Shown here: positions 8,757 to 64,000 of the stretch, piece by piece
Layout: each line of letters starts with the position of its first letter
Position numbering within the stretch: position 1 is the first letter of the stretch
Notes under the pieces: model-generated
Told to the model about the DNA's origin: nothing
The model's database searches: none
What the model saw: the letters and a program-made list of their open reading frames with translations, nothing else
Assembly: GCA_044227505.1 (NCBI GenBank)
Contig: JBGAWP010000001.1
Coordinates: 26,731-90,730 of the forward strand
Source of the DNA: Chitinophagales bacterium
Lineage (GTDB): Bacteria; Bacteroidota; Bacteroidia; Chitinophagales; BACL12
DNA: 64,000 bases
Direction of reading: 5' to 3'
Translations under genes and position numbers: made by a program

Positions 8757-8795
8757 TTGTTGAAGTAATTATTTAGTTTTATATGGATTTAGATA

Positions 8796-25050: not shown

Positions 25051-25199
25051 CCTTCGAATCCACAGAGATTCCCTTCGGGTAACACTGCGGGGACACTTGG
25101 GATGCAGAACTCAGAACCCAGAACTCAGAACTCATCCTCCGAATCTACAGCGTTTCTTTATCCTACTTCCTATTTCCTACTTCCTATTTCCCATTCCCC
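25051..25199. repeat. Composite intergenic repeat: CGAATCCACAGAG hairpin module plus GAACTCA and CCTACTT/CCTATTT heptamer arrays
   Basis: CCTTCGAATCCACAGAGATTCCCTTCGGGTAACACTGCGGGGACACTTGGG lies at 25051-25101. Four GAACTCA/GAACCCA heptamers lie at 25107-25134. CCTACTT/CCTATTT units lie at 25162-25199. Confidence 0.9.
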
Positions 25200-26333: not shown

Positions 26334-26490
26334 TGGATAAATTTTCGTGAAGATAAGTCTTTTGAAGATTCGAAGGGAGAGGAATCGAACCTGCTTGCTA
26401 ACAGTGTCGGGCAAGGGGAGAAGGGGAAGGGTCTAAGGGGGAGTAGGAAGGAATGGGTGGGGAAGGGTTGAAAAGTATTAATCTTATAAA

Positions 26491-26810
26491 AATATCGAAT
26501 AAAGAACAAGGAATAAAGAACATTGATCGGATCGACAGCCCGGGAGATATTGCTCCGCAGTGAATCGGGATTAATATCCAATAATAATCAAAAAATAAAA
26601 AATATTAATCGGACTGACAACCCTGAAGATTTTTCTCGGTAATAAATCCTTATAATATCGAATAAAGAACAAGGAATAAAGAACATTAAACGGATCGACA
26701 GCCCGGGAGATTTTCCTCCGCGGTGAACCAGGAGGAATATCAAATAATAATCAAAAAATAAAAAATATTAATCGGATCTACAACCCGGAGTTTATTCCTC
26801 CGAAGTGAAC
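26491..26810 (+). repeat. Tandem duplication of a 163-bp unit, each unit built from two related sub-elements of about 80 bp
   Basis: AATATCGAATAAAGAACAAGGAATAAAGAACATT starts at 26491 and again at 26654. Each unit contains two cores resembling ATTAATCGGATCGACANCCCGGAGATTTTCCTCCGNNGTGAAC. One core has an AATATCGAATAAAGAAC... leader and the other an AATAATAATCAAAAAATAAAAAAT leader. Confidence 0.9.
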
Positions 26811-26840
26811 TCAGAACCCGAACTACTCCATAAACTTTGA

Positions 26841-26935
26841 GCTCCGAATCCACAGAGTTCGCTGCGCGTAACACTGTGGGGAAACGCTTGGGGTTGGTGA
26901 ACTCAGAACCCTGAACTCAGAATTCAGAACAGAAC
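26841..26935. repeat. Second copy of the CGAATCCACAGAG hairpin module plus a GAACTCA heptamer array
   Basis: GCTCCGAATCCACAGAGTTCGCTGCGCGTAACACTGTGGGGAAACGCTTGGGG lies at 26841-26893. GAACTCAGAACCCTGAACTCAGAATTCAGAAC lies at 26899-26935. The module order matches 25051-25134. Confidence 0.9.
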
Positions 26936-26970
26936 ATAGTTCGAAATTAATGTTTCAAGAGAAAAAAATC

Positions 26971-30750: not shown

Positions 30751-30760
30751 ATTATAAATT

Positions 30761-30922
30761 GTCAATAGTCATTAGTCAGGAGTCATTAGTCAGGAGTGAG
30801 GACGTAAATTTTAAATCGGACGTAAACTCATTACTCATAACTCATTTGGAGAATCGTAAGCAATAATCCGGCTCGGAACATACTCACCACTCACCACTCA
30901 CCACTCACCACTTCCCACTCAC
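30761..30922. repeat. Heptamer-phased degenerate arrays filling the ArsS / AhpD-like intergenic spacer
   Basis: GTCAATA GTCATTA GTCAGGA GTCATTA GTCAGGA GTGAGGA lie at 30761-30802. GGACGTAAA occurs twice. AACTCAT TACTCAT AACTCAT lie around 30825-30846. TACTCAC followed by (CACTCAC)3 CACTTCC CACTCAC lie at 30881-30922, ending at the stop codon of the upstream gene. Confidence 0.95.
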
Positions 30923-37277: not shown

Positions 37278-37287
37278 GGGAGGAGTG

Positions 37288-37418
37288 GCAGTCGCAGTCG
37301 CAGTCGCAGTCGCAGTCGCAGTCGCAGTCGCAGTCGCAGTCGCAGTCGCAGTCGCAGTCGCAGTCGCAGTCGCAGTCGCAGTCGCAGTCGCAGTCGCAGT
37401 CGCAGTCGCAGTCGCAGT
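37288..37418. repeat. Perfect hexanucleotide microsatellite (GCAGTC)21 plus a partial unit
   Basis: I counted it directly: 126 bp of uninterrupted GCAGTC at 37288-37413, then GCAGT. It starts 11 nt after the sucA stop and ends 64 nt before the sucB start. Confidence 0.98.
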
Positions 37419-37481
37419 TTTAAATTTAAAGAATTATTTTAGTTCCGATAAATTGAATTAATATTAAAAATATAATTTATA

Positions 37482-38750
37482 ATGATAATTGAATTAAAAG
37501 TGCCGACAATTGGCGAATCTATAAATGAGGTTACACTTTCGAAGTGGCTTGTAAGTGATGGAGATATTGTTACTATTGATCAATCGCTATGTGAATTTGA
37601 AAGTGATAAGGCAACCTTGGAATTTCCGGCAGAGAAAGCAGGAAAAATTACTTTGCTTGTTAAAGAAGAAACAGAATTAAAAATAGGTGATGTAATTGCT
37701 ACCTTGGATACAGATGCTGTGCCCGCAGCAACAGCTGAAACAAAAAAGGAAGAAAAAGTTATAAAAGAAGAAGTGGTAGAAAAGAAAGAGGTAAAGGAAG
37801 GAAAGATTGTTGAAACAGTAAAAGAAGAAAAGAAAATTGCAGCAGAGGAACACGCCCCAGTTATTTCTCCATTAGCATCCACAATTGCAAAGGAAAATAA
37901 AGTGGATATTCAAAAATTATCAGGTACCGGAAGTGGCGGAAGAATTACGAAGGAAGATGTATTAAATTACATTAAAAGTGGAACTGATGGGAAGGAAATT
38001 GTAAAAGGTTTGCGAAAAAATTTACGCACACAGCATGAAGAAAAAGTATCCAAACTCCGCAAAACAATTGCAAAAAGATTGGTAGGAGTTAAAAATGAAA
38101 CCGCCATGCTCACCACCTTTAATGAAGTGGATATGAGCGCAATTATGGCAATTCGCGATAAACACAAAGTGAATTTTGAAAAGAAATTCGGAGTTGGATT
38201 GGGATTTATGTCGTTTTTTGTAAAAGCATGTTGTAATGCATTACAGGAATTTCCTAGTGTAAATGCATATTTTAATGAGGATACCATACTATTTAATGAC
38301 TATTGTGACATATCCATTGCAGTATCTACTCCAAAAGGTCTTGTAGTACCCGTAGTGCGCAATGCCGAAAGTATGAGTATGGCCGACGTAGAATTAACAA
38401 TTAAATCATTAGCAGTTAAAGGGCGTGACGGAACTTTGAGCTTGGAAGAAATGCAAGGCGGTACCTTTACTATAACCAATGGAGGAGTATTCGGATCATT
38501 AATGAGCACACCAATCATCAACGCACCACAAAGTGCGATTTTGGGCATGCATAAAATTCAGGAAAGGCCTATTGCTTTAAACGGACAAGTTATAATAAGA
38601 CCAATGATGTATCTTGCATTGAGTTATGATCACAGAATTATCGATGGAAAAGAATCGGTGAGTTTTTTGGTGAGGGTGAAGGAACAATTAGAAAAGCCGG
38701 AGAATTTATTGTTTGGTTTTGATAATATTGAATTGTTGCTGGAGTTATAA
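37482..38750 (+). CDS. sucB: Dihydrolipoyllysine-residue succinyltransferase (2-oxoglutarate dehydrogenase E2)
   Basis: The lipoyl domain is [18 protein letters not shown]. An E/K/A-rich linker and an E3-binding segment follow. The catalytic motif is [11 protein letters not shown]. Confidence 0.95.
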
Positions 38751-38796: not shown

Positions 38797-39831
38797 ATGA
38801 AATTTTATATCCTGTTATTATTGCCTGTACTAACAAGCTTACAATGTGCATCACAAAACCAGAATGAGAAGGCAATGAGTTATGGAGTTATGTTTTATAA
38901 TCTCGAAAATTTATATGATACAATAAATGACCCCAAGGTTGATGATGAAACTTTTCTTCCTGGTGCTGATAGAAAATGGGATGATGAGAAATACAAAAAG
39001 AAACTTAAACAACTTTCCAAAGTAATAGCAACCGGTGCTGATGAAATACCTGTTTTAGTGGGGTTGTGCGAAGTTGAAAATGTAATGGTGGTAAATGATC
39101 TTGCTGCCACACTTAATTTATCGGCTGCGAATTATTCTGTGGTACATTTTGATTCGCCTGATGAAAGAGGGATTGATGTTGCGCTTTTATATAACAAGAA
39201 CGTATTTACTCCAAAAATTAAAAAACCCATTCATGTAACTATTCCCGGTGATTCTGTGGACTATACAAGAGATATTTTATATGTTGCAGGAACCATAAAT
39301 ATAAATGGTAAAAAAGAAGATCTCCATATTTTTGTGAATCATTGGCCCAGCCGCTCAGAAGGTGAGGAAGTTTCAGCACCAAAACGAGCAGCCGCTGCTC
39401 AAACATTAAAACATTTTGTCGATTCTTTGAATAATAAATTTTCCGATCCTAATATTATTATCATGGGTGATTTTAATGATACTCCTTTTGATATCAGTAT
39501 TCAGAAAATATTAATGGCTCTAGAGACAAATAATACTTATCCTGATGAGTGCCTTGTTAATACTATGAGTTCTAAACAAAAAGCCGGAGAAGGAACCTAT
39601 AATTTTAAAGGGAATTGGCAAGTACTTGATCAAATAATAGTATCTGAAAGTTTATTGGATAAAACATCCGTTGATGCAGACCTAAATAGCGCCAAGATCG
39701 TCAAGCAGGACTGGATGTTATTTCACCACGATAAATACGGAGATTCGCCCGACAGAACTTATAGCGGAATTAAATATATTGGAGGATATTCTGATCACCT
39801 ACCTGTATATATCGAATTAATTACCTATTAA
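38797..39831 (+). CDS. Secreted endonuclease/exonuclease/phosphatase (EEP) family protein
   Basis: It has a signal peptide. Motifs are NLENLYD, GLCEVEN, MGDFNDTP and SDHLPVY. I prefer the ATG at 38797 over the TTG at 38791. Confidence 0.8.
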   Translation: MKFYILLLLPVLTSLQCASQNQNEKAMSYGVMFYNLENLYDTINDPKVDDETFLPGADRKWDDEKYKKKLKQLSKVIATGADEIPVLVGLCEVENVMVVNDLAATLNLSAANYSVVHFDSPDERGIDVALLYNKNVFTPKIKKPIHVTIPGDSVDYTRDILYVAGTININGKKEDLHIFVNHWPSRSEGEEVSAPKRAAAAQTLKHFVDSLNNKFSDPNIIIMGDFNDTPFDISIQKILMALETNNTYPDECLVNTMSSKQKAGEGTYNFKGNWQVLDQIIVSESLLDKTSVDADLNSAKIVKQDWMLFHHDKYGDSPDRTYSGIKYIGGYSDHLPVYIELITY

Positions 39832-40663
39832 AACAAAGTACATAACCACCACCGCCGGCGCCACATAATTTATATATCTCTTTACCGGATTGTAATCCTG
39901 CATGCCATTGGTGTTGCACTGATTCAGGAATTGCAAAAGCAAAATGTTGGAGTTGGAATGCAGAGAGTGCTTCGAGGTCTAAATAAAATCCTTCTTTATC
40001 GTTTTTTATTAATTTCTCGATCACTGAAGCAACCAAGGTCAAATATTCTTCATTTATCAACTTGCTGAAATCTTCTTTTTCCATTTTATTGATAAATAAT
40101 TCAATTTTGGTTGATGCTTTTCTTTCTAAACCAGTATTGAATAAACCAATGTTTAAATCTTTTAATAAATGAATTTCCTCAGTAACAGCCCGTGGCTCTC
40201 CACCGTGTAAAAGATGAACCGGTTTATTTAATAAGATCACTAATGGATCGAGTCCGGAACTGGTTTCATGGAAATAATTTTCCATTTCAGCGAGTACTTT
40301 TTTTAAAGTTTTTAGATCGGAAGCATGTTCGGTTTTAATTGTCTGGTTGGAATATTTATCAAACACAGCCGCAACTACAGAACCGGAACTTCCTAATCCC
40401 ATTCCTATAGGTATATCCGATCTTAAAAAATAATTATTTTGCAGATCCTCAATAAATTTTTCGAGGTCGAGAATTGTATTAAATTTTTCAGATGATTTCA
40501 GGAATTTATAGAATGGTCGCAGATCATGTATAATATCAATTGGAGAATTAGCCTGCTGCCATTCAGAACTATATTTCGGATAGGGAATTGCAAATCCTTC
40601 ACCACCTACCAACACGGCATATTCGCCGAACAATAATAATTTGGAAGGATAGGAAAGGTACAT
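39821..40663 (-). CDS. Short GHMP-family kinase, mevalonate kinase-like
   Basis: Motifs are KLLLFGEYAVLVGGEGFAIP, the GHMP motif PIGMGLGSSGSVVAA, and C-terminal CGAGGGGYVL. It sits in a mevalonate-pathway cluster. Its 3' end overlaps the convergent EEP gene by 11 nt. Confidence 0.6.
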   Translation of the reverse strand: MYLSYPSKLLLFGEYAVLVGGEGFAIPYPKYSSEWQQANSPIDIIHDLRPFYKFLKSSEKFNTILDLEKFIEDLQNNYFLRSDIPIGMGLGSSGSVVAAVFDKYSNQTIKTEHASDLKTLKKVLAEMENYFHETSSGLDPLVILLNKPVHLLHGGEPRAVTEEIHLLKDLNIGLFNTGLERKASTKIELFINKMEKEDFSKLINEEYLTLVASVIEKLIKNDKEGFYLDLEALSAFQLQHFAFAIPESVQHQWHAGLQSGKEIYKLCGAGGGGYVLCFNR

Positions 40664-40697
40664 TTACAATTTGTTAATTTGTTAATTTAATAATTAG
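40664..40697. repeat. AT-rich octamer array abutting the start codon
   Basis: AATTTGTT AATTTGTT AATTTAAT AATTAGAA lie directly upstream of the ATG at 40663 on the minus strand. The same words occur at 14469-14508. Confidence 0.85.
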
Positions 40698-40707
40698 AAC
40701 TACATGA

Positions 40708-41748
40708 CTAATCTTCAATTATTTGTGAAGGACCTTTTCCCATATGATCGTAGATCGCTTTCTTTTTTACACAAAATTGTAATAATTCACTTTGAATAAA
40801 ATTACGCACTTTCGTTTTTTCAGAATAGGGATATAAAACATGCACGTTTGGTCCGGCATCCAAAGTAAAACAAACAGGAATTTTTGTAGATGCTCTGAAA
40901 TTCCGTATACGTTCAATTACTTCTAATGTGTTTGGTTTCATTAAAATAAACGAATGTGTACTGGTCATCATTAAAGCATGTAATTCCAAGGCCTCTGTTT
41001 CCACAATTTGGCAAAATAGTCCCCAATCACCACTCTCTAATGCATTTAATAAAAGATTAAATCTTGTATTGGCATTAATATAACGTTGTTTTGCCATAGG
41101 GTGATCATTCATTAAGGAGTGACCTGCCCTGCTGCTTACCGATTTTTCATCTGCATTGATAATTAAAATAGTATCCTCCAGATCAATAAAATCGGCATGA
41201 TAATTAATTGGAAAGGGAATTGCATATTTATCTGAACTTCCATTTATCGATTTTGTTTTTCCCCAAACTGAAAACTCAGGATAAATACTACGCGACGCAC
41301 TACCACTTCCAAGCCGTGCAAAATTTGATGCCTGTTGTAAAAACGTATCGTAATTATACATTTTTTTTTCGGTGATCGCCTTCAGCGACATTAAACATAA
41401 GGCCATTGCACTCATAGAGGATGCACTGCTTGCTATTCCTGCAGAATGAGGAAAAGAGTTTTCCGATTCCACCATTAAACGTTTTTCGCTTAAAAAGGAA
41501 AAATCATTCTGAATATTCGCTAAATAATATAAAATTTTAGTAGAAAAAACAGGTTTTTTTTTCCCTTCAAAAGTGAAGTCAAGGTCAATAGGTTTTTTGC
41601 TTCTCTTTTTTTTAAGTGTTATTGAAGTTGTTGTATATGCTTCACTTAGTGTAAGTGATAAGGAGGGGTTATTGGGTAATTGTTCGCCATGTTTCCCCCA
41701 ATATTTAATAAGTGCAATGTTTGATGGGCTTTTCCAGGTAATTTTCAT
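40708..41748 (-). CDS. mvaD: Diphosphomevalonate decarboxylase
   Basis: Motifs are NIALIKYWGK, AGIASSASSMSA and LGSGSASRS. It has 346 aa. Confidence 0.85.
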   Translation of the reverse strand: MKITWKSPSNIALIKYWGKHGEQLPNNPSLSLTLSEAYTTTSITLKKKRSKKPIDLDFTFEGKKKPVFSTKILYYLANIQNDFSFLSEKRLMVESENSFPHSAGIASSASSMSAMALCLMSLKAITEKKMYNYDTFLQQASNFARLGSGSASRSIYPEFSVWGKTKSINGSSDKYAIPFPINYHADFIDLEDTILIINADEKSVSSRAGHSLMNDHPMAKQRYINANTRFNLLLNALESGDWGLFCQIVETEALELHALMMTSTHSFILMKPNTLEVIERIRNFRASTKIPVCFTLDAGPNVHVLYPYSEKTKVRNFIQSELLQFCVKKKAIYDHMGKGPSQIIED

Positions 41749-41789
41749 ACATACAAATTTAAATGCTAAACGTCAATCATTTTCCGGGA

Positions 41790-42728
41790 TCACAAAACCA
41801 TTTCATGATAGGGAATGATGGTATTATACTGTTTATTGGAAAAATAATCTCTCACCTCCACTTCCTCCATGCTGCTCGCTGCCAAAACAAAATCTCCACC
41901 CCATGCTCCTAATGATTTTACACTGCCTTTAAAATCAGGAAACAATTTTGTTTTTACCATTTCTTCCTGTAAAACAAATTGCATCATTTCCTCGTGTTCA
42001 TCCAATAATTGTTTGAAATCATGAAAGTCGTCGCAGAATAAAAGGGCTTCACTAATTTCTGATATCACCTCTATCTCCTCAATAAATTTAGAAGTGTTAT
42101 TGTTGAAGTTTATCACCTCTGTTTTAGAATCCTGTTTTTTGTTGAGATGCACAAAAAATATTTTTTCAGGACTTGGCGGCATAAAATGAACGGTATCAAA
42201 TACAGGTCCTTCCTCATCAATTTTAAACAGGACCGGTTTTTTCGCATTAGCACAGGCAATATCATAACCACTTCCTCCAAATACGATCTTATTCAAAACA
42301 AAAGCATCAACTCCTGCAAAACGCGCTATATTATTTATTAAAGTGGAGCTGCTTCCTAAACCGGAATGGCGATCAAATTCCAAATAATTTGTAATATGTG
42401 TTGAACCTTTGGTTTTCAAGAATTCGGAATTTAGATCCCGAATTGTTTTTAGAATTTTTTGTAAAGTTTCTAAAACAGGGGCTTCAATATTTTTTAATGT
42501 TTCTTTGAACGGACTGAGATCTTTTTTATTAAATTGAACATCTATCCAAATATTATTTTGATTGTCGTAACTCTTCCAGAATAAAATATTTTCTCCGCTC
42601 TCATCCTCTTCAACATCCATGCGCTGACCCTGTTTAGTTGGGACAGCCAAGGCCAATGCACCGCGCAATACCAGGTATTCGCCGCTGATTAATAGTTTAC
42701 CATGTGAATAGAAAGTTTTTTTCACCAA
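41790..42728 (-). CDS. GYDIA-type GHMP-family kinase (candidate phosphomevalonate kinase substitute)
   Basis: Motifs are GKLLISGEYLVLRGALALAVP, the GHMP motif HSGLGSSSTL, and the eponymous GGSGYDIACA. It has a non-ATG (TTG/GTG) start. Confidence 0.65.
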   Translation of the reverse strand: MVKKTFYSHGKLLISGEYLVLRGALALAVPTKQGQRMDVEEDESGENILFWKSYDNQNNIWIDVQFNKKDLSPFKETLKNIEAPVLETLQKILKTIRDLNSEFLKTKGSTHITNYLEFDRHSGLGSSSTLINNIARFAGVDAFVLNKIVFGGSGYDIACANAKKPVLFKIDEEGPVFDTVHFMPPSPEKIFFVHLNKKQDSKTEVINFNNNTSKFIEEIEVISEISEALLFCDDFHDFKQLLDEHEEMMQFVLQEEMVKTKLFPDFKGSVKSLGAWGGDFVLAASSMEEVEVRDYFSNKQYNTIIPYHEMVL

Positions 42729-42751
42729 AATTTATTAATAGTAAGTAAAAT

Positions 42752-44101
42752 TTATAATTTTTCTGTTGAGAAGTTTTCACCTCTCAGGTCAATTAAATAA
42801 GCTCTCACCGAACTGAACGAAACTGTTTTGTCAGTAAAATAAGTAGCAGCCAATTGTATCTCATTTTCACTCGCACCAAAGTGCCGTAAAATATTTGTGA
42901 GATGCATTTTCATGTGACCTTTTTGTATGCCTGAAGTTACCAATGCTTTAATGGCTGAAAAATTTTGTGCCAAACCAACACATGCTACGATCTTCATTAA
43001 TTCTTTTGCGCTTGGATTTCCCAATATCTCCAACGAGCGTTTGCTCAGTGGATGTAATTTTGTGAGTCCACCAACTGTTCCAACAGCTAATGGTATTTCT
43101 AAGGAGAAAATAAATTTATTCCCTTTTATTTCACAGCTGGAAAGACTTGCATATTGTCCGTTGCGCGATGCATAAGCGTGACCGCATGCTTCAATTGCGC
43201 GAAAATCGTTTCCTGTTGCGAGAATAACTGCATCAATACCATTAAAAATTCCTTTGTTATGGGTAGTTGCGCGATACACATCGTGTTTCGCTATATTAAT
43301 TGCAGTATTAAATTTTCTTGCAAATTGTTGTGCAGATAAACTTGCTTCTTCAAAAGAACCCAATTCAGTTATATCACATTCCACCCAGGCCTTTACTAAA
43401 CATTCAGGAGTATAATTACTTAAAATACTCATTACAACATCCACTTCTCTTTCAGCTCCGGTAAATTTTTTATTTTCTTTAACTTCTTCTGCAAGGCTTC
43501 CGGCAAAATGTTCCAAAACAGAATTAATAAAATTAGCACCCATTGCATCGGCAGTTTCGAAGGTTGCTTTTAATTGATAATATTCCGGTTCCAGATCGGA
43601 GCAATCAATTAATTCCAAAGTTTTTAATCCACCCCCGCGTGCCTTCATATTTTCAACCAGAGGTTGAACACCGGCAATTAATTCTTCTTTTAATTCCGTA
43701 TCGAAAAAATGCAATAATTTTTCACTGTCGCCTCGCCATAAAAAATGAACGTGACCAACTTTTATTGTTGAAATTACTTCAGCATGAAAACCTCCGCGCT
43801 CACTCCAGAATTTTGCTCCGGCACTTGCTGCTGCAACAACTGAGCTTTCTTCTATCACCATCGGCACTACATAAGTACGGCCATTAATAACAAAATTTGG
43901 GGCGACACCATAAGGTAAATAAAAATTGGTAAGGGTATTTTCAGAGATACCGTCGAATACTTTTTGCAATTCGGCATTGGCATGCATATAACTTGAAAAT
44001 TCCCGCGCAATATCCAATGGATTACTGGTGAGAAAATGTTTTGCAAGCCATGCAATTTTTTCCGTTTTATTGAGTTTGGAAAACCCTTTTATTTTTGCCA
44101 C
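42752..44101 (-). CDS. mvaA: Hydroxymethylglutaryl-CoA reductase, class II type
   Basis: Motifs are IEESSVVAAASAGAKFW, ADAMGANFIN and LAVGTVGG. It has 449 aa and a GTG start. Confidence 0.85.
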   Translation of the reverse strand: MAKIKGFSKLNKTEKIAWLAKHFLTSNPLDIAREFSSYMHANAELQKVFDGISENTLTNFYLPYGVAPNFVINGRTYVVPMVIEESSVVAAASAGAKFWSERGGFHAEVISTIKVGHVHFLWRGDSEKLLHFFDTELKEELIAGVQPLVENMKARGGGLKTLELIDCSDLEPEYYQLKATFETADAMGANFINSVLEHFAGSLAEEVKENKKFTGAEREVDVVMSILSNYTPECLVKAWVECDITELGSFEEASLSAQQFARKFNTAINIAKHDVYRATTHNKGIFNGIDAVILATGNDFRAIEACGHAYASRNGQYASLSSCEIKGNKFIFSLEIPLAVGTVGGLTKLHPLSKRSLEILGNPSAKELMKIVACVGLAQNFSAIKALVTSGIQKGHMKMHLTNILRHFGASENEIQLAATYFTDKTVSFSSVRAYLIDLRGENFSTEKL

Positions 44102-44143
44102 TCCTAAATTTATTATTCAAATACAATTAATTAAAAGCAAATG

Positions 44144-45235
44144 TTATTTTACTTTTAAAAAGTTATTACACAAAATTAACCCATCTCTCTGACTTTCGAT
44201 ATATGTTTTCAACTCCGCATATCCTGTCTGTGCATATTTCAGGAAACCGGAACCCTGCGCATAAATACTGTTCAGGTTCAACTTTTGGGTAAGATAATAT
44301 CCGTCCAAAAAGTTTTTAACTCCACCGCTGATTATCACCTCTCTGCATTTCAGATCGTTCCCTAATGTTGCAGCGGCTTGGTTTACAAATGCAACCATCT
44401 CCTCTGCTGTATGTCCTATATACGCTAATTCATTAAACACAGATCCTTCGGCATTGTTCGAACGCAACATTTCCAATTTTGCAAAATTAGTGCCGCCATA
44501 TGCGCCAAAATCAAGAGCAGCAATAGGTAGCTGCAACAAAGCTTTCACACTTTCAGGTCCCATTCCCTGGCCTACTTCCTTCACAATAAGGGGAAAATCA
44601 ACCTCAAGTAGCAATTGTTGTAAGGTTTCCAAAGGTGATTTTGTAAAGTTATCGCCCTCAGGTTGTAACCATTCCTGAAATGGATTAATATGAACTATAA
44701 GTCCGTCAGCATCAAGCGATTGCACCATTTTTTTAATGGCATCTACCGTATTATCGGCGAGGTTATGTTCTATCTGCGCAATTCCAAGGTTGGCAAAAAA
44801 GGGCAGGTTCTTTCCAATGATGGGCCTTAAATTAAAATCATCAAAATACTTGTCATCGTTCAACAGACGCCTGCAGGAGCCCAAACCCATGCCCATTCCG
44901 AATTCATTACATGCTCTTGCTAAATTGCGATTTATCACCCCGGCTTGCTCCGTTCCACCCGTCATACTGCTTATCCAGATTGGGTTTGCGAGCTTTTTCC
45001 CTAAAAATTCTTTCTCTAATGAAACTGTGTGATGTCCGCTCAAAACGGGTTCGTAGTAAAACCTCATATCATTTTCAAGACTTCCCGTCTGACTCTTGAG
45101 TGCCAGTTCGATATGGTCTTGTTTGCGTTGTTCTGAAGTTGGATCGGACAAGTGGAACTTTATTGTTGGGTGCAAAGGTAAGAAAATGAGTAATGAGTTA
45201 TGAGTGATGAGATGATCCGAGAAGGCCGGGTGCAT
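44144..45235 (-). CDS. fni: Type 2 isopentenyl-diphosphate delta-isomerase (FMN-dependent)
   Basis: Motifs are RKQDHIELAL, SSMTGG, FANLG, VKEVGQGM and FGAYGGTNFA. The start is uncertain. The first approximately 17-20 codons are read out of the AATGAGT heptamer array, and an in-frame TTG lies at about 45175. Confidence 0.85.
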   Translation of the reverse strand: MHPAFSDHLITHNSLLIFLPLHPTIKFHLSDPTSEQRKQDHIELALKSQTGSLENDMRFYYEPVLSGHHTVSLEKEFLGKKLANPIWISSMTGGTEQAGVINRNLARACNEFGMGMGLGSCRRLLNDDKYFDDFNLRPIIGKNLPFFANLGIAQIEHNLADNTVDAIKKMVQSLDADGLIVHINPFQEWLQPEGDNFTKSPLETLQQLLLEVDFPLIVKEVGQGMGPESVKALLQLPIAALDFGAYGGTNFAKLEMLRSNNAEGSVFNELAYIGHTAEEMVAFVNQAAATLGNDLKCREVIISGGVKNFLDGYYLTQKLNLNSIYAQGSGFLKYAQTGYAELKTYIESQRDGLILCNNFLKVK

Positions 45236-45477: not shown

Positions 45478-45573
45478 CTCTCATTACTCAAAACTCATTT
45501 CTCATCCACAGACCCACCCACTCACCCTTTCCCTTCCCACTCACTCCTCACCACTCACCACTCCCCCCTCACC
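45478..45573. repeat. Heptamer-type arrays upstream of the M3 peptidase gene (ACTCATT and CACTCAC words)
   Basis: The sequence reads CTCTCATTACTCAAAACTCATTTCTCATCC ... CCCACTCACCCTTTCCCTTCCCACTCACTCCTCACCACTCACCACTCC. CTCACCACTCAC at 45547-45558 is the exact reverse complement of GTGAGTGGTGAG at 45264-45275. Confidence 0.9.
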
Positions 45574-47310: not shown

Positions 47311-47312
47311 AT

Positions 47313-47565
47313 GGGACGCGGGAATCGGGACACGGAAATCGGGAAAACAAAGGATGGAGAAAAAGAGGATCGCGGATGACGCTGATTTAGCGGATTTAAA
47401 AGGATAAATTTTTTTAATAATGCAGATTAATTATTAATTAGAATATAGAGTTTTCAATTTACGATAAGTACAGTCCGTCGCGGCGGACGAGCCATCTTTT
47501 AACAACGGACTTTAGCCCGTGGGTTAATAAAAAGAGGAACCTGACTAACGCGGTCAGCAGGCAGG
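47313..47565. repeat. Composite intergenic repeat block (GGGAATC heptamers, CGGATTT words, GTCC..GGAC hairpins, divergent CCTG..CAGG palindrome)
   Basis: GGGACGC GGGAATC GGGACAC GGAAATC GGGAAAA lie at 47313-47347. GATGACGCTGATTTAGCGGATTTAAAAGGATAAATTT lies at 47375-47411. The hairpin GTCCGTCGCGGCGGAC is followed by CATCTTTTAACAACGGACTTTAGCCCGTGGG at 47493-47523. CCTGACTAACGCGGTCAGCAGGCAGG lies at 47540-47565. Confidence 0.9.
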
Positions 47566-47782
47566 CGCTAAAGACGCAAATTTGGCGGATTTAAAAGGGT
47601 TTTTTTTGAATATTGAATTTTTAATAGCCTAGAAAATATTTGTCCTAGAATAAATTAAACCCCGGTAGGGGTGGCATTATTATAGAAAAGATGCAATTAA
47701 ATTAACCGTAAACCCCGTTAGGGGTGACATTATAACCCAACCTACAAAAAATGATATTTTAATAACTCAAATTGAATTTACG

Positions 47783-48517
47783 GTGAAATATAATTTTAAT
47801 AAATATCTAATACTGTTTTTGATCATTGGATTTTTTCCTGTGATTGTTGATGCGCAAACTAATTCGAGAGATTCATCGATATTAAAAGCTACAAGCATTG
47901 CCAAACGTGTTATTAGTGCAATGGGTGGCGAAGAAAATTTTGAGCAGACCAAATATATAGGCTGGACATTTTTTGGGAGTAGAAAATTAATTTGGGATAA
48001 GGAAAATGATAGGTTGAGGGTTGATTATCTTAAAAAGAAATTAACAATTATTACGTCTTTAAATTCTGATGAAACTAAATTATATATGGATGATATCGAA
48101 ATCACTAATACAGATTCCCTTATCAAATATAGTACAAGAGGAAAAAGAATTTGGGCAAACGATTCCTATTGGCTCCTGATGCCTTTTAAATTGTTGGATG
48201 AAGGGGTGAATTTAAAATTTGTAAAAGACACACTTTTAAATACTGTAAATACCTCCATCCTCGAAATGACCTTTGAAAATGTTGGTTTTACCCCTGAAAA
48301 TAAATATTGGATCTACGTTGATATGAATTCCTATTTAATAACCCAATGGGATTTCTACAATACCTATACTGACATAACACCCGAATTTTCCAATACCTGG
48401 GGCGACTACAAAAAATACGATAAATTACTGATCTCCGGTGACCGCGGCGTAGAAGGAAAATTGGAAAATATTTATGTGGTGGATGAAATGCCTTCAGCAA
48501 TATTTGAAACGAAATAA
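47783..48517 (+). CDS. Hypothetical secreted protein (244 aa)
   Basis: It has a GTG start and a signal peptide (KYLILFLIIGFFPVIVDAQ). I recognise no motif. Related repeat modules flank it on both sides. Confidence 0.5.
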   Translation: MKYNFNKYLILFLIIGFFPVIVDAQTNSRDSSILKATSIAKRVISAMGGEENFEQTKYIGWTFFGSRKLIWDKENDRLRVDYLKKKLTIITSLNSDETKLYMDDIEITNTDSLIKYSTRGKRIWANDSYWLLMPFKLLDEGVNLKFVKDTLLNTVNTSILEMTFENVGFTPENKYWIYVDMNSYLITQWDFYNTYTDITPEFSNTWGDYKKYDKLLISGDRGVEGKLENIYVVDEMPSAIFETK

Positions 48518-48605
48518 GATTTGGGATGAGGGTTTCGGTACAAGTGAAACAGGGGAACAAATAAATGAATAAAAAAGGGAACCCGCCAGTGGGCGAACAG
48601 GAGCT

Positions 48606-48978
48606 GATGACGCTGATTTGTCGGATTTAAAAGGATAAATTTAAAGGGGATATAATTAGAAATTTGAGATGAATTTTTCGGCTATAAATAATCAAAAAGT
48701 CCTGAAAGGACGGCACATCTTGTAACAACGGACTTTAGTCCGAGGTAACTAGTCCAAAATGTGACTCAGGACACAGGAAACAGGACAACTTTGACTCAAC
48801 TTGAAAATTTATAATGCCAAGTAAAATTTAAATTAGCATATAAAATTTTCAATCAAAAACGAACTCCCCTTTTTCAACCTTTCCCAACCCTTCCTTCCTT
48901 TTTTAACCTTAGAACCTTACCCTTCGAATCTTCTCCCTTCTCCCTTCGAATCTTCCATGACTTCTCCCTTCGAATCTT
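48606..48978. repeat. Composite intergenic repeat block (second copy of the 47375-47523 modules, CAGGACA heptamers, CCCTTCGAATCTT x3)
   Basis: GATGACGCTGATTTGTCGGATTTAAAAGGATAAATTT lies at 48606-48642. The hairpin GTCCTGAAAGGAC is followed by CATCTTGTAACAACGGACTTTAGTCCGAGGT at 48716-48746. CAGGACA CAGGAAA CAGGACA lie at 48767-48787. CCCTTCGAATCTT occurs at 48920, 48942 and 48966, and the last copy overlaps the response-regulator stop codon. Confidence 0.9.
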
Positions 48979-53104: not shown

Positions 53105-55690
53105 ATGCTTAAGAATCTTTACTTACTGTTTCTTTCCTTAATTCTATGTACTATCGTTAACTCCCAGGTTGTGATTAAAGGCCACGTATCTGAATACGAC
53201 GGAGGTGCACTTATAGGTGCCACCGTAGTTGAAAAGGGCACTACCAATGGCACCTTGGCCGATGTTGACGGTAATTTTACCATCACGCTCAGCAGCACTC
53301 CTGCAACGCTCGTGTTTACCTATGTGGGTTATGCTACACAGGAGATCGAGGTTACTGCACAAACTACCTTGCGTGTAATATTGGAGGCAGATTCCTATAG
53401 TTTAAGCCAGGTGGAAGTGCTGGGAACCAGAAGTTTGAACAGATCTTCCACCGAAAGTATGGTACCCATTGATATAATTGATGTTAGTGCATTTACCGCT
53501 GCTAATGGTCAATTGGATATGAATCAGTTATTACAATATGCTGCTCCTTCCTTTAATTCCAATCGGCAGAGCGGAAGTGATGGTGCCGATCATATTGACC
53601 CTGCAACATTAAGAGGATTGGGTCCGGATCAAACATTAGTTCTTGTAAATGGAAAAAGATATCATCAATCATCTCTTATAAATATTTTTGGTACTCGCGG
53701 TAGAGGAAATACAGGAACTGATTTAAATACAATACCTGCTGCCGCAATTGAAAGAATTGAAATTTTACGCGATGGTGCATCTGCACAATATGGATCAGAT
53801 GCAATTGCGGGGGTAATCAATATTGTTTTAAAAGATAATGTAAATGAATTTACCGGCAATGTAAATACCTCCGGAAATCTCGCACAATATAATTTCGACC
53901 AGGGTTCCATCGATGGGCAAAATTTGCAAATAAATGGAAATTATGGATTTGATATTGGTGAAAAAGGCTTTCTGAATGTAACAGCAGATTATCATTATCG
54001 CGGACATACAAATCGCGCAGAATTTACCGGCGATTTTCCCGATAATGTGGATGTGCGCAATCAGTATGGTGATGCTGAGGTTACAGATTTTTCAGCTTGG
54101 TTCAATATGAAATATCAGTTAAACGGAAATGCACACTTTTATGCTTTCGGAGGATATAACACTAGAGATGTTGCCGCTTATGCTTATACAAGAGATGCTG
54201 GCAGTCCGAGAAATGTTACTTCACTTTACGAAAAGGGATTTGATCCCGTTATTGCATCCATTGTAACAGATAAGTCTGTTTCAGGAGGAATTCGCGGTGA
54301 TATTCATGGTTGGGATGTTGATTTTAATAATACCTTCGGAGCAAATAAAATGCATTATTATGGAAGAGAAACATTAAATGCTTCTATGGGTGATGCATCT
54401 CCAACTGAATTTGATGACGGCGGATTTTCATTAGCGCAAAATTCAACTAGTCTTAATTTTACAAAATATTTTGCCAGCGTTTTACAGGGATTAAATATTG
54501 CTTATGGTGCGGAATATCGCATTGATAATTATCAGATCTTTGCAGGCGAAGAAGCTTCATGGTATAATTACGGAGCAGTATTAATTGATGGTGAAGATAC
54601 CATTGGCAGACCTGGCGGTTCACAAGGGTTTCCGGGCTTTCAACCAAAAGATGTAACCAATGAATTCCGCTCTAATCTCGGAGCTTATTTTGATGTGGAA
54701 GCAAATTTTACGGAACAATTTTCTGCGGATGCTGCCTTGCGTTATGAAAATTATTCTGACTTCGGAAATACTGTGAATGGAAAATTAGCGGCACGATTTG
54801 CAATAAATGAAAAATTTGCATTCAGAGGATCTTTTAGCACAGGTTTCAGAGCACCATCTTTAGCACAAATTTATTTTAGTTCCACTTACACAAATGTGGA
54901 AGCAGGGGTAATTATTGATGAGGTTATTGCGGATAATAAAAGCACTATTGCCCGTCAACTCGGTATACCCGCATTAAAACAGGAAGAAAGTATGAATGGC
55001 AGTTTTGGATTTACGGCAAAACCAATGACCGGATTATCCTTAACGATAGATGGATATTATATCACCATAAATGACCGTATCGTATTAACCGATGGGTTCG
55101 GAACAGATGATGATATTATCGGCGGAATTCTATCTGATCTTAATGTTGGTTATGCAAGATTTTTTACCAATGCAGTGGACACAAAAACAATGGGTGTGGA
55201 TGTTATTCTTGCTTATAAAATTTATATGCAGGAAAATGCCCTCACATTTACCTATGCCGGAAATTTTAATCAGATGACAATTGAAAATATTTATACCAAC
55301 GATCTGCTAACCGGAAAGGAAGATAATTATTTCAGTTTGCGTGAGCAATATTTTTTAATTGCAAGTGCTCCACCTGCTAAAATGAATTTAACAGTAGAAT
55401 ACTCCACGAAAAAATTAAATGCAACATTGCGCGCTAATTATTTCGGCGAGATTAATTTAATTAATTACAGTGGATTGGAATATACTTATTCAGCTAAAAC
55501 AACAATTGATGCAAGTATAGGTTACGATATCACTAAAAATTCACATCTGACTATAGGTGCTGCAAACTTATTAAACACCTATCCTGATCCAACAGATCCA
55601 TACGAAACAGAAACCGGTGGTGCCTGGGATGCAGTGCAAATGGGATATAATGGAACGGCGGTGTTTGCGAAACTTGGGTTTAAGTTTTGA
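53105..55690 (+). CDS. TonB-dependent outer membrane receptor with an N-terminal carboxypeptidase-regulatory-like domain
   Basis: It has a signal peptide. The CarbopepD_reg-like segment is VIKGHVSEYDGGALIGATVVEKGT..TDVDGNFTI. Plug motifs are LRGLGPDQTLVLVNGKRY and IERIEILRDGASAQYGSDAIAGVINIVLK. The C-terminus is aromatic (LGFKF). Confidence 0.9.
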   Translation: MLKNLYLLFLSLILCTIVNSQVVIKGHVSEYDGGALIGATVVEKGTTNGTLADVDGNFTITLSSTPATLVFTYVGYATQEIEVTAQTTLRVILEADSYSLSQVEVLGTRSLNRSSTESMVPIDIIDVSAFTAANGQLDMNQLLQYAAPSFNSNRQSGSDGADHIDPATLRGLGPDQTLVLVNGKRYHQSSLINIFGTRGRGNTGTDLNTIPAAAIERIEILRDGASAQYGSDAIAGVINIVLKDNVNEFTGNVNTSGNLAQYNFDQGSIDGQNLQINGNYGFDIGEKGFLNVTADYHYRGHTNRAEFTGDFPDNVDVRNQYGDAEVTDFSAWFNMKYQLNGNAHFYAFGGYNTRDVAAYAYTRDAGSPRNVTSLYEKGFDPVIASIVTDKSVSGGIRGDIHGWDVDFNNTFGANKMHYYGRETLNASMGDASPTEFDDGGFSLAQNSTSLNFTKYFASVLQGLNIAYGAEYRIDNYQIFAGEEASWYNYGAVLIDGEDTIGRPGGSQGFPGFQPKDVTNEFRSNLGAYFDVEANFTEQFSADAALRYENYSDFGNTVNGKLAARFAINEKFAFRGSFSTGFRAPSLAQIYFSSTYTNVEAGVIIDEVIADNKSTIARQLGIPALKQEESMNGSFGFTAKPMTGLSLTIDGYYITINDRIVLTDGFGTDDDIIGGILSDLNVGYARFFTNAVDTKTMGVDVILAYKIYMQENALTFTYAGNFNQMTIENIYTNDLLTGKEDNYFSLREQYFLIASAPPAKMNLTVEYSTKKLNATLRANYFGEINLINYSGLEYTYSAKTTIDASIGYDITKNSHLTIGAANLLNTYPDPTDPYETETGGAWDAVQMGYNGTAVFAKLGFKF

Positions 55691-55945
55691 AATGAGTAAT
55701 GAGTTATGAGCCTGCCTGCCGACTGCGTCAGCGTCAGGCAGGTAATGAGTGTGATCCGGGTAGGATTATGCTCACCACTCACCATTTACGTAATAGTCGC
55801 AGTCTCAGTAAGCAGTTTTAAGCCAGCTGAGTCTTACTTCGCATTCACGTATGAGTAATGAGCCTGCCTGCCGACTGCGTCAGCGTCAGGCAGGTAATGA
55901 GTTTGATCCGAGTAGGAGTAAGCTCACTACTCACCACTCACTATT
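55691..55945. repeat. Two direct units of about 95 bp, each carrying AATGAGT words, a 32-nt GC-rich palindromic element and CACTCAC words
   Basis: Unit 1 spans 55691-55790 and unit 2 spans 55850-55945. The identical 32-mer CCTGCCTGCCGACTGCGTCAGCGTCAGGCAGG lies at 55711-55742 and 55863-55894. Next to them a 13-bp-stem hairpin at 55936-55973 is formed by inverted CACTCAC-type words. Confidence 0.95.
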
Positions 55946-55989
55946 CACAAAGGGTGAGTGGTGAATAGTGAGTAGGGAGTGACTCTATC

Positions 55990-56700
55990 ACCGGAAGATA
56001 TACCTTCGAACCAAGCTGAATAAATAACCAATAACAATCAAAAAATAAAAAACATTTATCGGATCGACTACCCGGAAGTCCCTCCTTCGAAGGGAACCTA
56101 TAGAACAATAATATCGAATACCGAACAAGGAATAAAGAATATTAATCGGATTGACATCCCGGATGATTTTCCTCCGAAATGAAACTTTCAATGTAAACGA
56201 AAAATATACTCCCCTATAGGGTAGGGGGCCCTTCGGATCGACACACTGGAGATTTTCCTCCGTAATAAACCCCTTCAACTCCTTCAACCAATCTCACCTC
56301 AAAGTTTCAAGTAGAATCGGAATTCCCTCTGTAATGAACCTTGCGAACCCAATTTAATATCGAACCTGCCTGCCGGTAGGCAGGTAAAGAACAAGGAATA
56401 AAGAACCTGTCTGCCGGCAGTCGCCAGGCAGGCATCTAACATGTCGACAATCCTGAAGATTTTCCTCCGCAACAAACCAAATTAATATCCAATAACAATC
56501 AAGAAATAAAAAATAACAATCGGATTCTCTCCCGGATGATTATCCTCCGTAACAAACCCCTTTAACCCCTTCAACTCCTTCAACCAATCTCGCCTCATGG
56601 TTTCAGGTAGAACCGGAGTCTCCCTCCGTAATGAACTCAGAACCTGCCTGACGCTGACGCAGTCGGCAGGCAGGCCCCGAACCCAGAACTGAAACATGCA
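55990..56700. repeat. Array of the approximately 80-bp modular element (same family as 26491-26810) with nested GC-rich palindromes and an approximately 295-bp higher-order repeat
   Basis: Element copies lie at about 56027-56098, 56107-56186, 56231-56271, 56355-56477 and 56482-56558. The unit CCTTCAACTCCTTCAACCAATCTC(A/G)CCTCA..GTTTCA.GTAGAA.CGGA...CCCTC.GTAATGAAC occurs at 56269-56340 and 56566-56636. Palindromes lie at 56365-56384, 56406-56432 and 56643-56674. Confidence 0.9.
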
Positions 56701-56765
56701 GTGATCGACGCAGGAGATCTACTACATGTCAGAACCCCGAACTTTTTTCTCCCCCCTTTAGTTTA

Positions 56766-56773
56766 TACCTTTG
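56766..56773 (+). promoter_or_regulatory. Candidate -7 box (TAccTTTG) for the NifU-like gene
   Basis: TACCTTTG matches the TAnnTTTG consensus and lies 16 nt upstream of the ATG at 56789. I see no clear -33 TTTG. Confidence 0.3.
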
Positions 56774-56788
56774 CAAAAAGAAAAGACT

Positions 56789-57373
56789 ATGAGCAATTTT
56801 ATCGTAAGCATATATACAGAAGGAACCCCGAACCCTGACAGTTTGAAATTTGTGATGAATAAAATGTTGTTGACCGGACAAAGTGTCGACTTCGACAGAG
56901 GAGATAATGTGAGTTATGCGCCTTTGGCGGAGGAATTATTTAACAAATTCGACTTTATTAAGGGTGTATTTATCATGAATAACTTCGTAACGGTTAGAAA
57001 AGAGGCGGAAATTGATTGGTTTGAAGTGAAATCGGGTATCAGTGAATTTATCAAAAATTATGTGAGCGAGGGAAAAACCGTAGTTGGTGAAATTCCTGAA
57101 ATTGATAATATCAGTGGCGAACTGGATGGCGATGCGATCATTGCCAAAATAAAATCCATGTTGGACCAATATGTGAAACCAGCCGTTGAAATGGATGGTG
57201 GTGCAATACAGTTCAAATCTTTCGACAATGGAATTGTTACATTGATGATGCAAGGTTCATGCAGCGGATGTCCTTCTTCTACCGTAACACTAAAATCTGG
57301 AATTGAAGGTTTATTAAAACGTATGGTTCCCGAAGTGAAAGAAGTGGTTGCGGAAAGTGCAGAAATAATTTAA
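56789..57373 (+). CDS. NifU-family Fe-S cluster assembly/carrier protein (Nfu_N plus NifU C-terminal domain)
   Basis: The Nfu_N-like N-terminus is IYTEGTPNPDSLKFVMN. The C-terminal motif is GSCSGCPSSTVTLKSGIE. I prefer the ATG at 56789 over the TTG at 56771. Confidence 0.85.
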   Translation: MSNFIVSIYTEGTPNPDSLKFVMNKMLLTGQSVDFDRGDNVSYAPLAEELFNKFDFIKGVFIMNNFVTVRKEAEIDWFEVKSGISEFIKNYVSEGKTVVGEIPEIDNISGELDGDAIIAKIKSMLDQYVKPAVEMDGGAIQFKSFDNGIVTLMMQGSCSGCPSSTVTLKSGIEGLLKRMVPEVKEVVAESAEII

Positions 57374-63411: not shown

Positions 63412-63585
63412 TTACTTTGGAGATTATTGATTATGGTTGAAAAAGTCAATAGTCAACAGTGGGCAGTTTGTAGCATTGGAGATTATTGTTTCGGTTGAAG
63501 TTTTTTTACACCCGTAAACTTGTATTATTTGACGTGCAAAACGATGTTTTATTTCCTCCCGAAACTTTACCAAATCATTAAATAA

Positions 63586-63862
63586 GGAGAGAGGAGAGAG
63601 GAGTTTAAATTTCTTGCGAAATTTTGTAAGACAACACCGTATGATTTAATGATTGCTAATACCCTAAACCATACATTTAAAACCCTCGCTAAGAGCGAGA
63701 ATCACACTGTATCCAACGAAATATTAAAATACCACCCTTTGTTTTCCTGCACTTAAAAAGGAGAAAGGAGTGAGGAGAAAGGAGTTTAAATTTCTGGCGA
63801 AATTTTATTGGGTGGTACGTTAGTGAGGCTTTCGCTCTTAGCGAAGGTCTCACTAACGGTAC
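63586..63862. repeat. Direct repeats about 175 bp apart plus long hairpins built from an inverted TCGCTAAGAGCGA word
   Basis: GGAG-rich words followed by GGAGTTTAAATTTCT(T/G)GCGAAATTTT occur at about 63586-63636 and 63761-63810. The hairpin CTCGCTAAGAGCGAG lies at about 63686-63700. A hairpin with a stem of about 22 bp, GTACGTTAGTGAGGCTTTCGCT/AGCGAAGGTCTCACTAACGGTAC, lies at 63815-63862. Confidence 0.85.
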
Positions 63863-63895
63863 TCTCCACTCCCAACTGCGTTTGTTTTCCTAATA

Positions 63896-63983
63896 CTTGA
63901 TACCTGATACCTGATACGCGCGCAGCGCCCGTCCTATTTCCCCTTCCATTGTCCTACGTCAAGTCCTATGTCCTGTGTCCTAA
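63896..63983. repeat. Heptamer arrays (CCTGATA type, GTCCTAT type)
   Basis: CTTGATA CCTGATA CCTGATA lie at 63896-63916. GTCCTAT GTCCTGT GTCCTAA lie at 63963-63983, with further GTCCTA words at 63931 and 63951. Confidence 0.9.
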
Positions 63984-64000
63984 AAAATACATTGATCCCC

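Follow-up and report, generated by a model that had tools for sequence, protein, structure and literature searches.

The 64-kb window analysed here (64,000 nt of contig JBGAWP010000001.1 from an uncultured Chitinophagales bacterium) contains a repeat cluster in which an AT-rich unit of ~80 nt is interrupted by two short GC-rich hairpins, P20 and P27. The cluster separates a TonB-dependent receptor gene (53105-55690) from a NifU/Nfu gene (56789-57373) and is a mosaic of ~80-nt units, arrays of heptamer words and GC hairpins. Comparison with uninterrupted copies of the unit reveals that the interrupted state is derived. We consider it probable (about 0.6) that the hairpins represent a cassette family resembling repetitive extragenic palindromes (REPs) and bacterial interspersed mosaic elements (BIMEs), which entered by a few insertions at word junctions and was then multiplied together with its host units.

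P20 and P27 interrupt a collinear repeat unit

The sequence that had been called a leader in a preliminary description of this DNA is the 5' half of a ~78-81-nt unit with the consensus tAATAtcgAATAAagAaCAAggAATAAAgAAcatTAAtCggAtcgacaaCCCGgaaGATttTcCTcCG.A.tgAAcc. This unit has two homologous variants, A, with G-containing words, and the A-rich B (AATATCCAATAATAATCAAAAAATAAAAAAT), which align with each other gap-free when cassettes are left aside. Uninterrupted leaders match exactly at 26491 and 26654; the one at 56110 has diverged, with 2 mismatches to the search pattern of 17 nt. In the copy within the cluster, removal of 20 nt (56365-56384) and 27 nt (56406-56432) yields a gap-free unit of ~78 nt, which bears out the proposal in the preliminary description that two palindromes interrupt an otherwise collinear repeat. 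The excised 78-nt unit (from 56356-56480) aligns without gaps to 26491-26568 with 60/78 identities (77%) and to 26654-26731 with 64/78 (82%), and its first 33 nt are identical to the copy at 26491. A hidden Markov model of uninterrupted units re-detects 56385-56478, across P27, as unit positions 12-78 (E = 4e-6). Two details can be added to the preliminary description: the copy starts with AATATCGAA at 56356, one base after the previously given 56355, and the lack of an obvious target-site duplication is complete, as collinearity is exact and no flank is duplicated. The second junction reads GAACCTGT and has one C common to 'GAAC' and 'CCTG', so that P27 may have entered at GAA^C or 1 nt later, at GAAC^; in both cases the insert measures 27 nt. 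CATCTAAC follows directly 3' of P27.

Both inserts are predicted to form stable hairpins, with DNA ΔG values of -9.0 (P20) and -10.2 kcal/mol (P27) and z scores of -3.5 and -4.0 against shuffled sequences; the P27 stem contains one T·G pair. We compared metagenome contigs of the same species, found via a NifU protein look-up; an exact look-up of the TonB receptor protein had returned no record. Seven independently assembled contigs that reach the site reproduce both inserts, which are therefore no assembly artefact; one of these contigs (L007) starts its match inside P20. The features of the cluster and the reference units are compiled in Table 1.

Table 1. Repeat units and hairpin cassettes in the window.
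Feature	Position	Strand	Basis or remark
Repeat cluster, 1.1 kb (1,098 nt)	55691..56788	+	Fills spacer between TonB-dependent receptor gene and NifU/Nfu gene
Interrupted A-type unit, 5' end AATATCGAA	56356..56364	+	Sequence, unit alignment
P20, 20-nt GC hairpin cassette CCTGCCTGCCGGTAGGCAGG, junction 1	56365..56384	.	Sequence, folding
Word segment TAAAGAACAAGGAATAAAGAA(C) between P20 and P27	56385..56405/6	+	Sequence, unit alignment
P27, 27-nt GC hairpin cassette CCTGTCTGCCGGCAGTCGCCAGGCAGG, junction 2	56406..56432	+	Sequence, folding
Interrupted unit, 3' half (core) CATCTAACATGTCGACAATCCTGAAGATTTTCCTCCGCAACAAACC	56433..56480	+	Profile search, unit alignment
P32 copy 1, 32-nt hairpin CCTGCCTG-CCGACTGCGTCAGCGT-CAGGCAGG	55711..55742	+	Within ATGAG word array
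P32 copy 2	55863..55894	+	32/32 versus copy 1; in ATGAG word array, within tandem repeat
P32 copy 3	56643..56674	-	Exact reverse complement; within CAGAAC/CCGAAC word array
Four uninterrupted tandem units A-B-A-B (26491, 26573, 26654, 26736)	26491..26813	+	'Empty' reference forms
Uninterrupted B unit and A unit, same cluster	56023..56187	+	Repeat and profile searches
Uninterrupted B unit directly after interrupted A unit	56485..56558	+	Profile search, alignment

The units occur in co-oriented tandem arrays, such as A-B-A-B in the window and up to six consecutive copies in the metagenome-assembled genome (MAG) JAYSYX01, and they are oriented independently of the flanking genes. A conserved hairpin in the unit core was considered and rejected: folds of single units are on a par with those of shuffled sequences (z about 0), and an obvious compensatory pattern is missing from the alignment of copies. 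A search of the whole window against Rfam 15 gave no match at gathering score, and a further search returned only a chance-level microRNA match (E = 0.07). The ~80-nt unit behaves as a DNA-level, satellite-like repeat.

Most copies of the unit are empty

To score the cassettes across copies of the unit, we combined the window with comparison loci that had been fetched by the leader 22-mer, namely 12 loci from MAG JAYSYX01 and the Chitinophagales MAG L012 (~74 kb), which carry these unit families, too; P27 was not a search key in this collection. Among the 19 A-type units of the three genomes, 14 are empty. The other five (window, L016, L018, L019, and L042) are filled at junction 1, and three of these (window, L018, and L042) also carry GC-rich sequence at junction 2, which looks decayed in L018 and L042. 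None of the about 10 B-type units in the three genomes is filled. Moreover, junction 1 has no flanking direct repeat or microhomology that could drive repeated precise loss. The empty majority with identical junctions in three genomes, the gap-free alignment of the B units and the absence of a direct repeat at junction 1 together establish that the filled state is derived and that the palindromes are not ancestral. This is what the preliminary description had supposed; it had also conceded that 26491 would be a deleted form if most leader copies carried the palindromes, and the census speaks against that.

P20, P27, and P32 belong to one cassette family

P20, P27, and P32 share the pattern CCTG(Y)CTG...CAGGCAGG, with a CCTGCC(TG)/(CA)GGCAGG stem, CCTG...CAGG ends and a variable loop of 4-16 nt. 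The family comprises forms of 20, 23, 27, and 32 nt, and P20 resembles a shortened P27 (19/27 aligned). Stems of 7-9 bp, ΔG values of -9 to -14 kcal/mol and z scores of -3.5 to -4.1 are characteristic of its members, and all copies in the window lie in the spacer 55691-56788. The three P32 copies of this spacer are identical over 32/32 positions and occupy two unrelated word contexts in both orientations (+, +, -). Copy 1 starts 20 nt past the stop codon of the receptor gene; the tandem repeat around copies 1 and 2 has a best-matching core of 91 nt that is 91% identical, the full 152-nt units being 74% identical. For the unit that contains P32 (55691-55800), a three-way structure is predicted on both strands (z about -3.5); its outer stem consists of ATGAG words paired with CTCACCA words, and its inner arms are P32 and a second hairpin, GAGTGTGATCCGGGTAGGATTATGCTC. 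We rejected a long-range pairing between the site-1 and site-2 cassettes of the kind known from REP doublets forming hairpins (REPINs), as it was predicted in the window copy owing only to the common stem and was not predicted in L018 or L042.

P27 shows the behaviour of a cassette. The copy at junction 2 of the window matches the cassette at junction 1 of L019 in 27/27 positions and that at junction 1 of L018 in 26/27, whereas the 3' halves of the host units that carry P27 are only 31/48 to 32/52 identical (about 60-65%). With the same boundaries at two junctions and greater uniformity than its hosts, P27 behaves as a discrete cassette that was relocated or homogenised independently of the host units. 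In L041, two tandem units differ by a P32-like cassette inside an ATGAG array, one having it and the other lacking it. The left flank is GAA or GAG (GAR^) in 10 of 13 cassettes, as in ...GAG^CCTG and ...GAA^CCTG; right flanks are CAGG^TAA, CAGG^CAT, and CAGG^CCC. A metagenome scan with the 3' half of P27 (CGGCAGTCGCCAGGCAGG) was discarded: it gave 62 matches, all of them due to chance in DNA of high GC content and all from outside this lineage.

The cluster is specific to one lineage and the cassettes are fixed

Syntenic relatives keep the order PDZ protease, TonB receptor, NifU, with NifU proteins that are 88-91% identical. In six of them (L047-L052) the spacer between receptor and NifU genes measures 111-276 nt, versus 1,098 nt in the window, and carries an ordinary terminator consisting of a GC hairpin and a T-run; L053 and L054 have an unassigned gene fragment upstream, with 72 nt between its end and NifU. 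The promoter region of L050 is homologous to that of the window. The 83 kb of DNA searched from these syntenic relatives contained neither units nor cassettes. Judged by this comparison, the 1.1-kb cluster is a lineage-specific gain.

A second spacer (47311-48976) is similarly expanded, with 1.67 kb in the window versus 53 nt in the relative L055. It separates convergent Peptidase_M3 and response-regulator genes and contains an open reading frame (ORF; 47783-48517) flanked by 40-nt direct repeats (47372, 47567, and 48603) and other repeat families. The ORF and its flanking repeats may be a small inserted cassette.

Within the species, P20 and P27 are fixed in the present population. At the cassette site, the conspecific contigs differ only in two point substitutions: L010 has one of them in the word segment and L001 the other in P27. 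About 120 nt downstream of the site, a 9-nt word-copy insertion of the AACCCCTTT type (56555-56563) is present in the window only and absent from all seven conspecific contigs, which indicates that slippage alters the word arrays within the species. For the near relatives P0001 and P0002, the contigs begin within the 3' end of the cluster, 29-88 nt before NifU and short of the cassette sites; strains whose NifU is 98-99% identical also have contigs that end in this part of the cluster. For the second locus (26415-26970), a single conspecific contig was found, L056, and it breaks off after 128 nt of the repeats. The repeats break metagenome assemblies of this lineage, with many contigs ending in the cluster. 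Three contigs show variant junctions, with DNA that differs from the window (55691-56370) upstream of parts of the cluster. In L005 (1808-2040) and L009 (1-390) the upstream region of a glycyl-tRNA synthetase (GlyRS) gene is joined to the cluster, and the breakpoint, near 56004-56021, falls on a unit boundary; in L007 (1-134) the stop codon of an unrelated gene is joined directly to CTGCCGGTAGGCAGG, with the breakpoint inside P20. These variants suggest recombination at repeats, although chimeric assembly could also account for them.

Relation to REPs, BIMEs, and miniature transposable elements

The cassettes are short (20-40 nt), imperfect, GC-rich extragenic palindromes, as REPs are, and the interleaving of P32 (+, +, -), P20, and P27 with A and B units and with the repeat families D5, D7, and D13 gives the cluster the mosaic structure of BIMEs. 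Two REP super-families are defined by GTAG and CGTC tags (PMC3733652). Neither a GTAG tag nor a degenerate form of it occurs outside the stem in the cassette flanks, and the combination of a terminal CGTC tag, a stem of 8-9 bp and a loop of 4-5 nt was not seen in the cassettes, where CGTC is found only inside the P32 loop. The 20- and 27-nt inserts also lack the terminal inverted repeats, the target-site duplication and the length (about 100-400 bp) of miniature inverted-repeat transposable elements (MITEs). Of the earlier assignment to the 'REP or MITE type', what stands is that the palindromes are discrete, derived cassettes; membership in either class proper and current mobility are not supported, as the cassettes have no GTAG/CGTC tag, terminal inverted repeats or target-site duplication, no Y1 or other transposase was found in the 64 kb, and no empty allele occurs among the seven conspecific contigs reaching the site. 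Nor do the cassettes resemble intrinsic terminators: there is no terminator-like site on the + strand in 55500-56900 and no T-run after any cassette, P32 at 55711 being followed by TAATGAG.

Origin of the cassettes

We propose that the cassettes would have been inserted or relocated a few times into the ~80-nt AT-rich unit, at purine-rich word junctions and usually just after GAA or GAG, and that insertion would have left no target duplication. They would then have been carried along as the host units multiplied through tandem duplication, ectopic recombination and gene conversion among paralogs, and the resulting mosaic would be akin to enterobacterial REP/BIME clusters. The original insertion could have occurred either by hairpin-dependent single-strand transposition, involving an unseen Y1-type enzyme, or by template switching or conversion between word arrays. 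At present the cassettes may have a role, e.g., by forming a hairpin, in RNA or DNA, 3' of the receptor gene.

Several points weigh against this proposal. A second GAA^TAAAGAAC junction, located 14 nt downstream and with the same local sequence as junction 1, is never filled, compared with five fillings at junction 1. This points to a small number of founding events, after which the cassettes were co-amplified with their host unit; the independent insertions may be as few as two or three. Copy number is low: the 64-kb window holds five cassettes, all in one spacer, and the ~74 kb of leader-selected loci hold five more. The use of the leader 22-mer as fetch key biases the sample to well-conserved leaders, and the fetched JAYSYX01 loci contain no orthologous gene by which to gauge the evolutionary distance from the window genome; an apparent gene match proved to be an ABC-F paralogue (32% identity) and was not usable for this purpose. 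Both cassettes are present in 7/7 conspecific contigs reaching the site, without any empty allele, and the polymorphism of empty and filled sites that the preliminary description had linked to mobility was therefore not observed. Finally, the RAYT (REP-associated tyrosine transposase) or IS200/IS605-type TnpA that it had suggested looking for was not found within the ~64 kb of genome and the fetched loci that we covered. The ~49 ORFs of the window, which corresponds to about 2% of a genome, include no Y1 or other transposase according to Pfam and NCBIfam, and a rough tblastn with approximate Y1 transposase sequences gave no acceptable match in any fetched locus. The best match (E = 0.37, L027) was rejected because it runs antisense to a real ORF; we also rejected the ORF 47783-48517 as a candidate enzyme, since it encodes a signal-peptide protein without family match.

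Four other explanations have to be weighed. If the cassettes were an active REP/REPIN-type element, a RAYT or IS200/IS605-type Y1 transposase encoded elsewhere would move single-stranded hairpins and insert them 3' of GAR without duplication. Such an element would account for the missing target-site duplication, the precise boundaries at the foot of the hairpin, the occurrence of the same cassette at different junctions and in both orientations, the recurrent GAR^ left flank, and the clustering with other motifs as in BIMEs. We nevertheless regard it as unlikely, given that no GTAG/CGTC tag lies beside the stem, neither the window nor the fetched loci yielded a Y1 transposase, alleles do not vary among conspecific contigs, copies are few and an identical potential target in the same unit was never used. 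We take somewhat more seriously, while still holding it tentative, an origin independent of transposases, in which template switching or microhomology-guided conversion between word arrays would use words ending in GAA or GAG as homology, and conversion between paralogs would add or remove a cassette precisely. This would fit the invariable position of the cassettes at word junctions in purine-rich arrays, the word-copy indel among strains, and the recombination among units that is evident from a hybrid B/A leader in L042 and from breakpoints at repeats. The cassettes are also built of short GC words, (CCTG)2...(CAGG)2, and the P27 loop shares GGCAGTCGC with an (AGTCGC)n array. On the other hand, there is no direct evidence of conversion tracts, junction microhomology amounts to only 1-3 nt, and the origin of the first cassette would be left unexplained.

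The hairpins could also be selected RNA or DNA structures (terminator-like, transcript-stabilising or protein-binding) that are kept for their function and not by selfish spread. P32 lies 20 nt past the receptor stop codon, where relatives have a canonical GC hairpin with T-run terminator, and the + strand of the spacer offers no other terminator-like site; the T·G pair of P27 would be G·U in + strand RNA, and the cassettes are better conserved than the host-unit cores. We doubt this explanation all the same, because P20 and P27 are about 670 nt and 715 nt away from the nearest upstream gene end, no cassette is followed by a T-run, P32 is found both ways round, the units are oriented without regard to the genes beside them, and the invariant stems provide no covariation that would support selection on pairing. 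Very improbable, in our view, is the reverse of the derived state, namely that the palindromes were ancestral to the unit and that 26491 and the other uninterrupted copies are deletion derivatives. Palindromes are prone to deletion, P20 and the 23-nt form (P23) resemble an internally deleted P27, and the site-2 sequences of L018 and L042 look decayed. Yet in three genomes 14/19 A units, and every B unit, lack cassettes and have identical junctions, no direct repeat flanks site 1 to drive repeated precise loss, and A and B units align gap-free without cassettes. A few insertions followed by multiplication with the host units is thus the explanation that we prefer.

Word arrays and other repeats in the spacers

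Arrays of short words with a period of ~7 nt are pervasive in the spacers of the window. The words include TAATGAG, CAGAACT, CTCACCA, GCGGATT, and TAAAGAAC/AAGGAA, in addition to (AGTCGC)n; TTGTTAA, CCTATTT, AGTCATT/AGTCAGG, CTTCTCC, GATACCT, and GTCCTAT occur as well. Examples of such arrays are found at 8652-8768, 14467-14504, 25101-25199, 30756-30922, 45500-45570, 48880-48976, and 63890-63990, often near the complementary word, so that long imperfect hairpins are possible. Heptanucleotide arrays have been described in bacteria, including some Bacteroidetes (PMC4679880).

The 22-mer TAAAGAACAAGGAATAAAGAAC (or its variant with a final T) recurs in spacers of Sphingobacteriales, Chitinophagales, Cytophagales, and Bacteroidales within the Bacteroidota, and in Ignavibacteria. 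A scan of genome contigs yielded 36 stretches with this 22-mer versus about one expected by chance, and all but one belong to the Bacteroidota and Ignavibacteria phyla (L011-L046). Its recurrence across Bacteroidota orders and Ignavibacteria argues that a common word vocabulary is real. TAAAGAACAAGGAATAAAGAAC either forms long tandem arrays or pairs imperfectly with TTCTTTATTCCTTGTTC as one arm of a hairpin; in Ignavibacterium a longer string, AATATTGAATAAAGAACAAGGAATAAAGAAT, is conserved (L029, L044). It is conceivable, if improbable, that one transposase-independent process (slippage, template switching or an unrecognised enzyme) builds the spacers of Bacteroidota from common short words and that hairpins of GC words, (CCTG)2...(CAGG)2, insert precisely at the word junctions. 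If so, the hairpins would be a bacterial counterpart of mitochondrial GC clusters.

Further repeats were seen in the window and the comparison loci. About 23 tandem AGTCGC hexamers (37284-37421) lie between the genes for 2-oxoglutarate dehydrogenase E1 (34548-37277) and E2 (37482-38750); the start of this array, GGCAGTCGC, matches the P27 loop, and the reverse complement GACTGC occurs in the P32 loop. A family that reads CCGAATCCACAGNG...GTAACACTGYGGGGA... and continues into CAGAAC arrays is present at 25040-25135 and 26832-26934 of the window and at 4451-4523 and 4622-4724 of L018, with 82-85% identity between the window and MAG JAYSYX01. The repeat AAGGAGNGAGGAGANAGGAGTTTAAATTTCTNGCGAAATTTT (window 63584-63625 and 63765-63806; L018 1826-1873) is 98% identical over 48 nt between the window and JAYSYX01, which is unusually conserved for a spacer. 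Paired copies of AAACCCCNGNAGGGGTGNCATTAT, a small GGGG/CCCC hairpin, are found in both genomes (window 47660-47740; L019 ~2630-2700). In addition, a degenerate hairpin family, cgaac-CYGCYTGCTAACNGYGTCGGRCARGG-ggagaagg, lies beside gene starts (window 26385-26420; L005 ~1830-1860), and its window copy overlaps the annotated TTG start region of an AI-2E transporter ORF (25200-26414, minus strand). Apart from repeats, the window contains a mevalonate-pathway cluster on the minus strand (39821-45235) with genes for a GHMP kinase, diphosphomevalonate decarboxylase, a GYDIA-family kinase, hydroxymethylglutaryl-CoA (HMG-CoA) reductase, and type 2 isopentenyl diphosphate (IPP) isomerase.

Comparison with known systems

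To our knowledge, short interspersed palindromes are well studied in Proteobacteria and hardly so in Bacteroidota. The family described here lacks the hallmarks that tie REPs to RAYT, is nested in a satellite-like unit, and resides in spacers that grew from ~100 nt to >1 kb in one lineage. Should its cassettes move without a dedicated transposase, they would lend themselves, as a simple system, to work on the spread of hairpin DNA and on its part in reshaping spacers and promoting rearrangements.

The word arrays are comparable to the heptanucleotide long simple-sequence repeats of bacteria (Mrazek 2007, as cited in PMC4679880) and to the TAACTGA repeats (PMC4679880), which are intergenic direct repeats of ~7 nt with sporadic distribution, including Bacteroidetes, and strain-variable copy number. 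The words in our window differ in that they belong to a conserved ~80-nt unit interrupted by hairpin cassettes, an arrangement not described for those heptanucleotide repeats. With MITEs such as Correia/NEMIS the cassettes share that they are small, non-coding, intergenic and repeated; unlike MITEs, which measure 100-400 bp and have terminal inverted repeats and target-site duplications, they are 20-32 nt long and cause no duplication.

In Bacteroidota, only CGTC-type repeats have been reported (PMC3733652). These and the Rickettsia palindromic elements (PMC3733652) are short hairpins without a dedicated transposase, as the cassettes are in the DNA that we covered, and the CGTC-tagged repeats, too, are reported in Bacteroidetes. 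They differ from the CGTC-tagged repeats, which have a CGTC tag, a stem of 8-9 bp and a loop of 4-5 nt (PMC3733652), by their loops of 4-16 nt and their CCTG...CAGG ends. The resemblance to the REPs and BIMEs of E. coli and the REPINs of Pseudomonas is broader. In both cases imperfect GC-rich extragenic palindromes of 20-40 nt occur in either orientation, form mosaic clusters with other short motifs in spacers, often just downstream of genes, cause no target duplication and vary in abundance between lineages. REPs are present in tens to thousands of copies per genome, and a RAYT gene is typically flanked by the repeats; unlike them, the cassettes have no GTAG (or CGTC) tag, no RAYT was found in the DNA that we covered, and their copy number is low so far. 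In contrast to BIMEs, they do not alternate with S/L/r motifs and are nested in an ~80-nt AT-rich satellite unit.

The GC clusters of yeast and fungal mitochondria are short GC-rich palindromes in AT-rich spacers that occur in several size classes, in both orientations, and as presence/absence differences in collinear sequences. They belong to another domain of life and are unrelated in sequence, and their strain polymorphism and short target signatures were not seen in our cassettes. By analogy, both systems would consist of GC palindromic cassettes that interrupt AT-rich spacer DNA.

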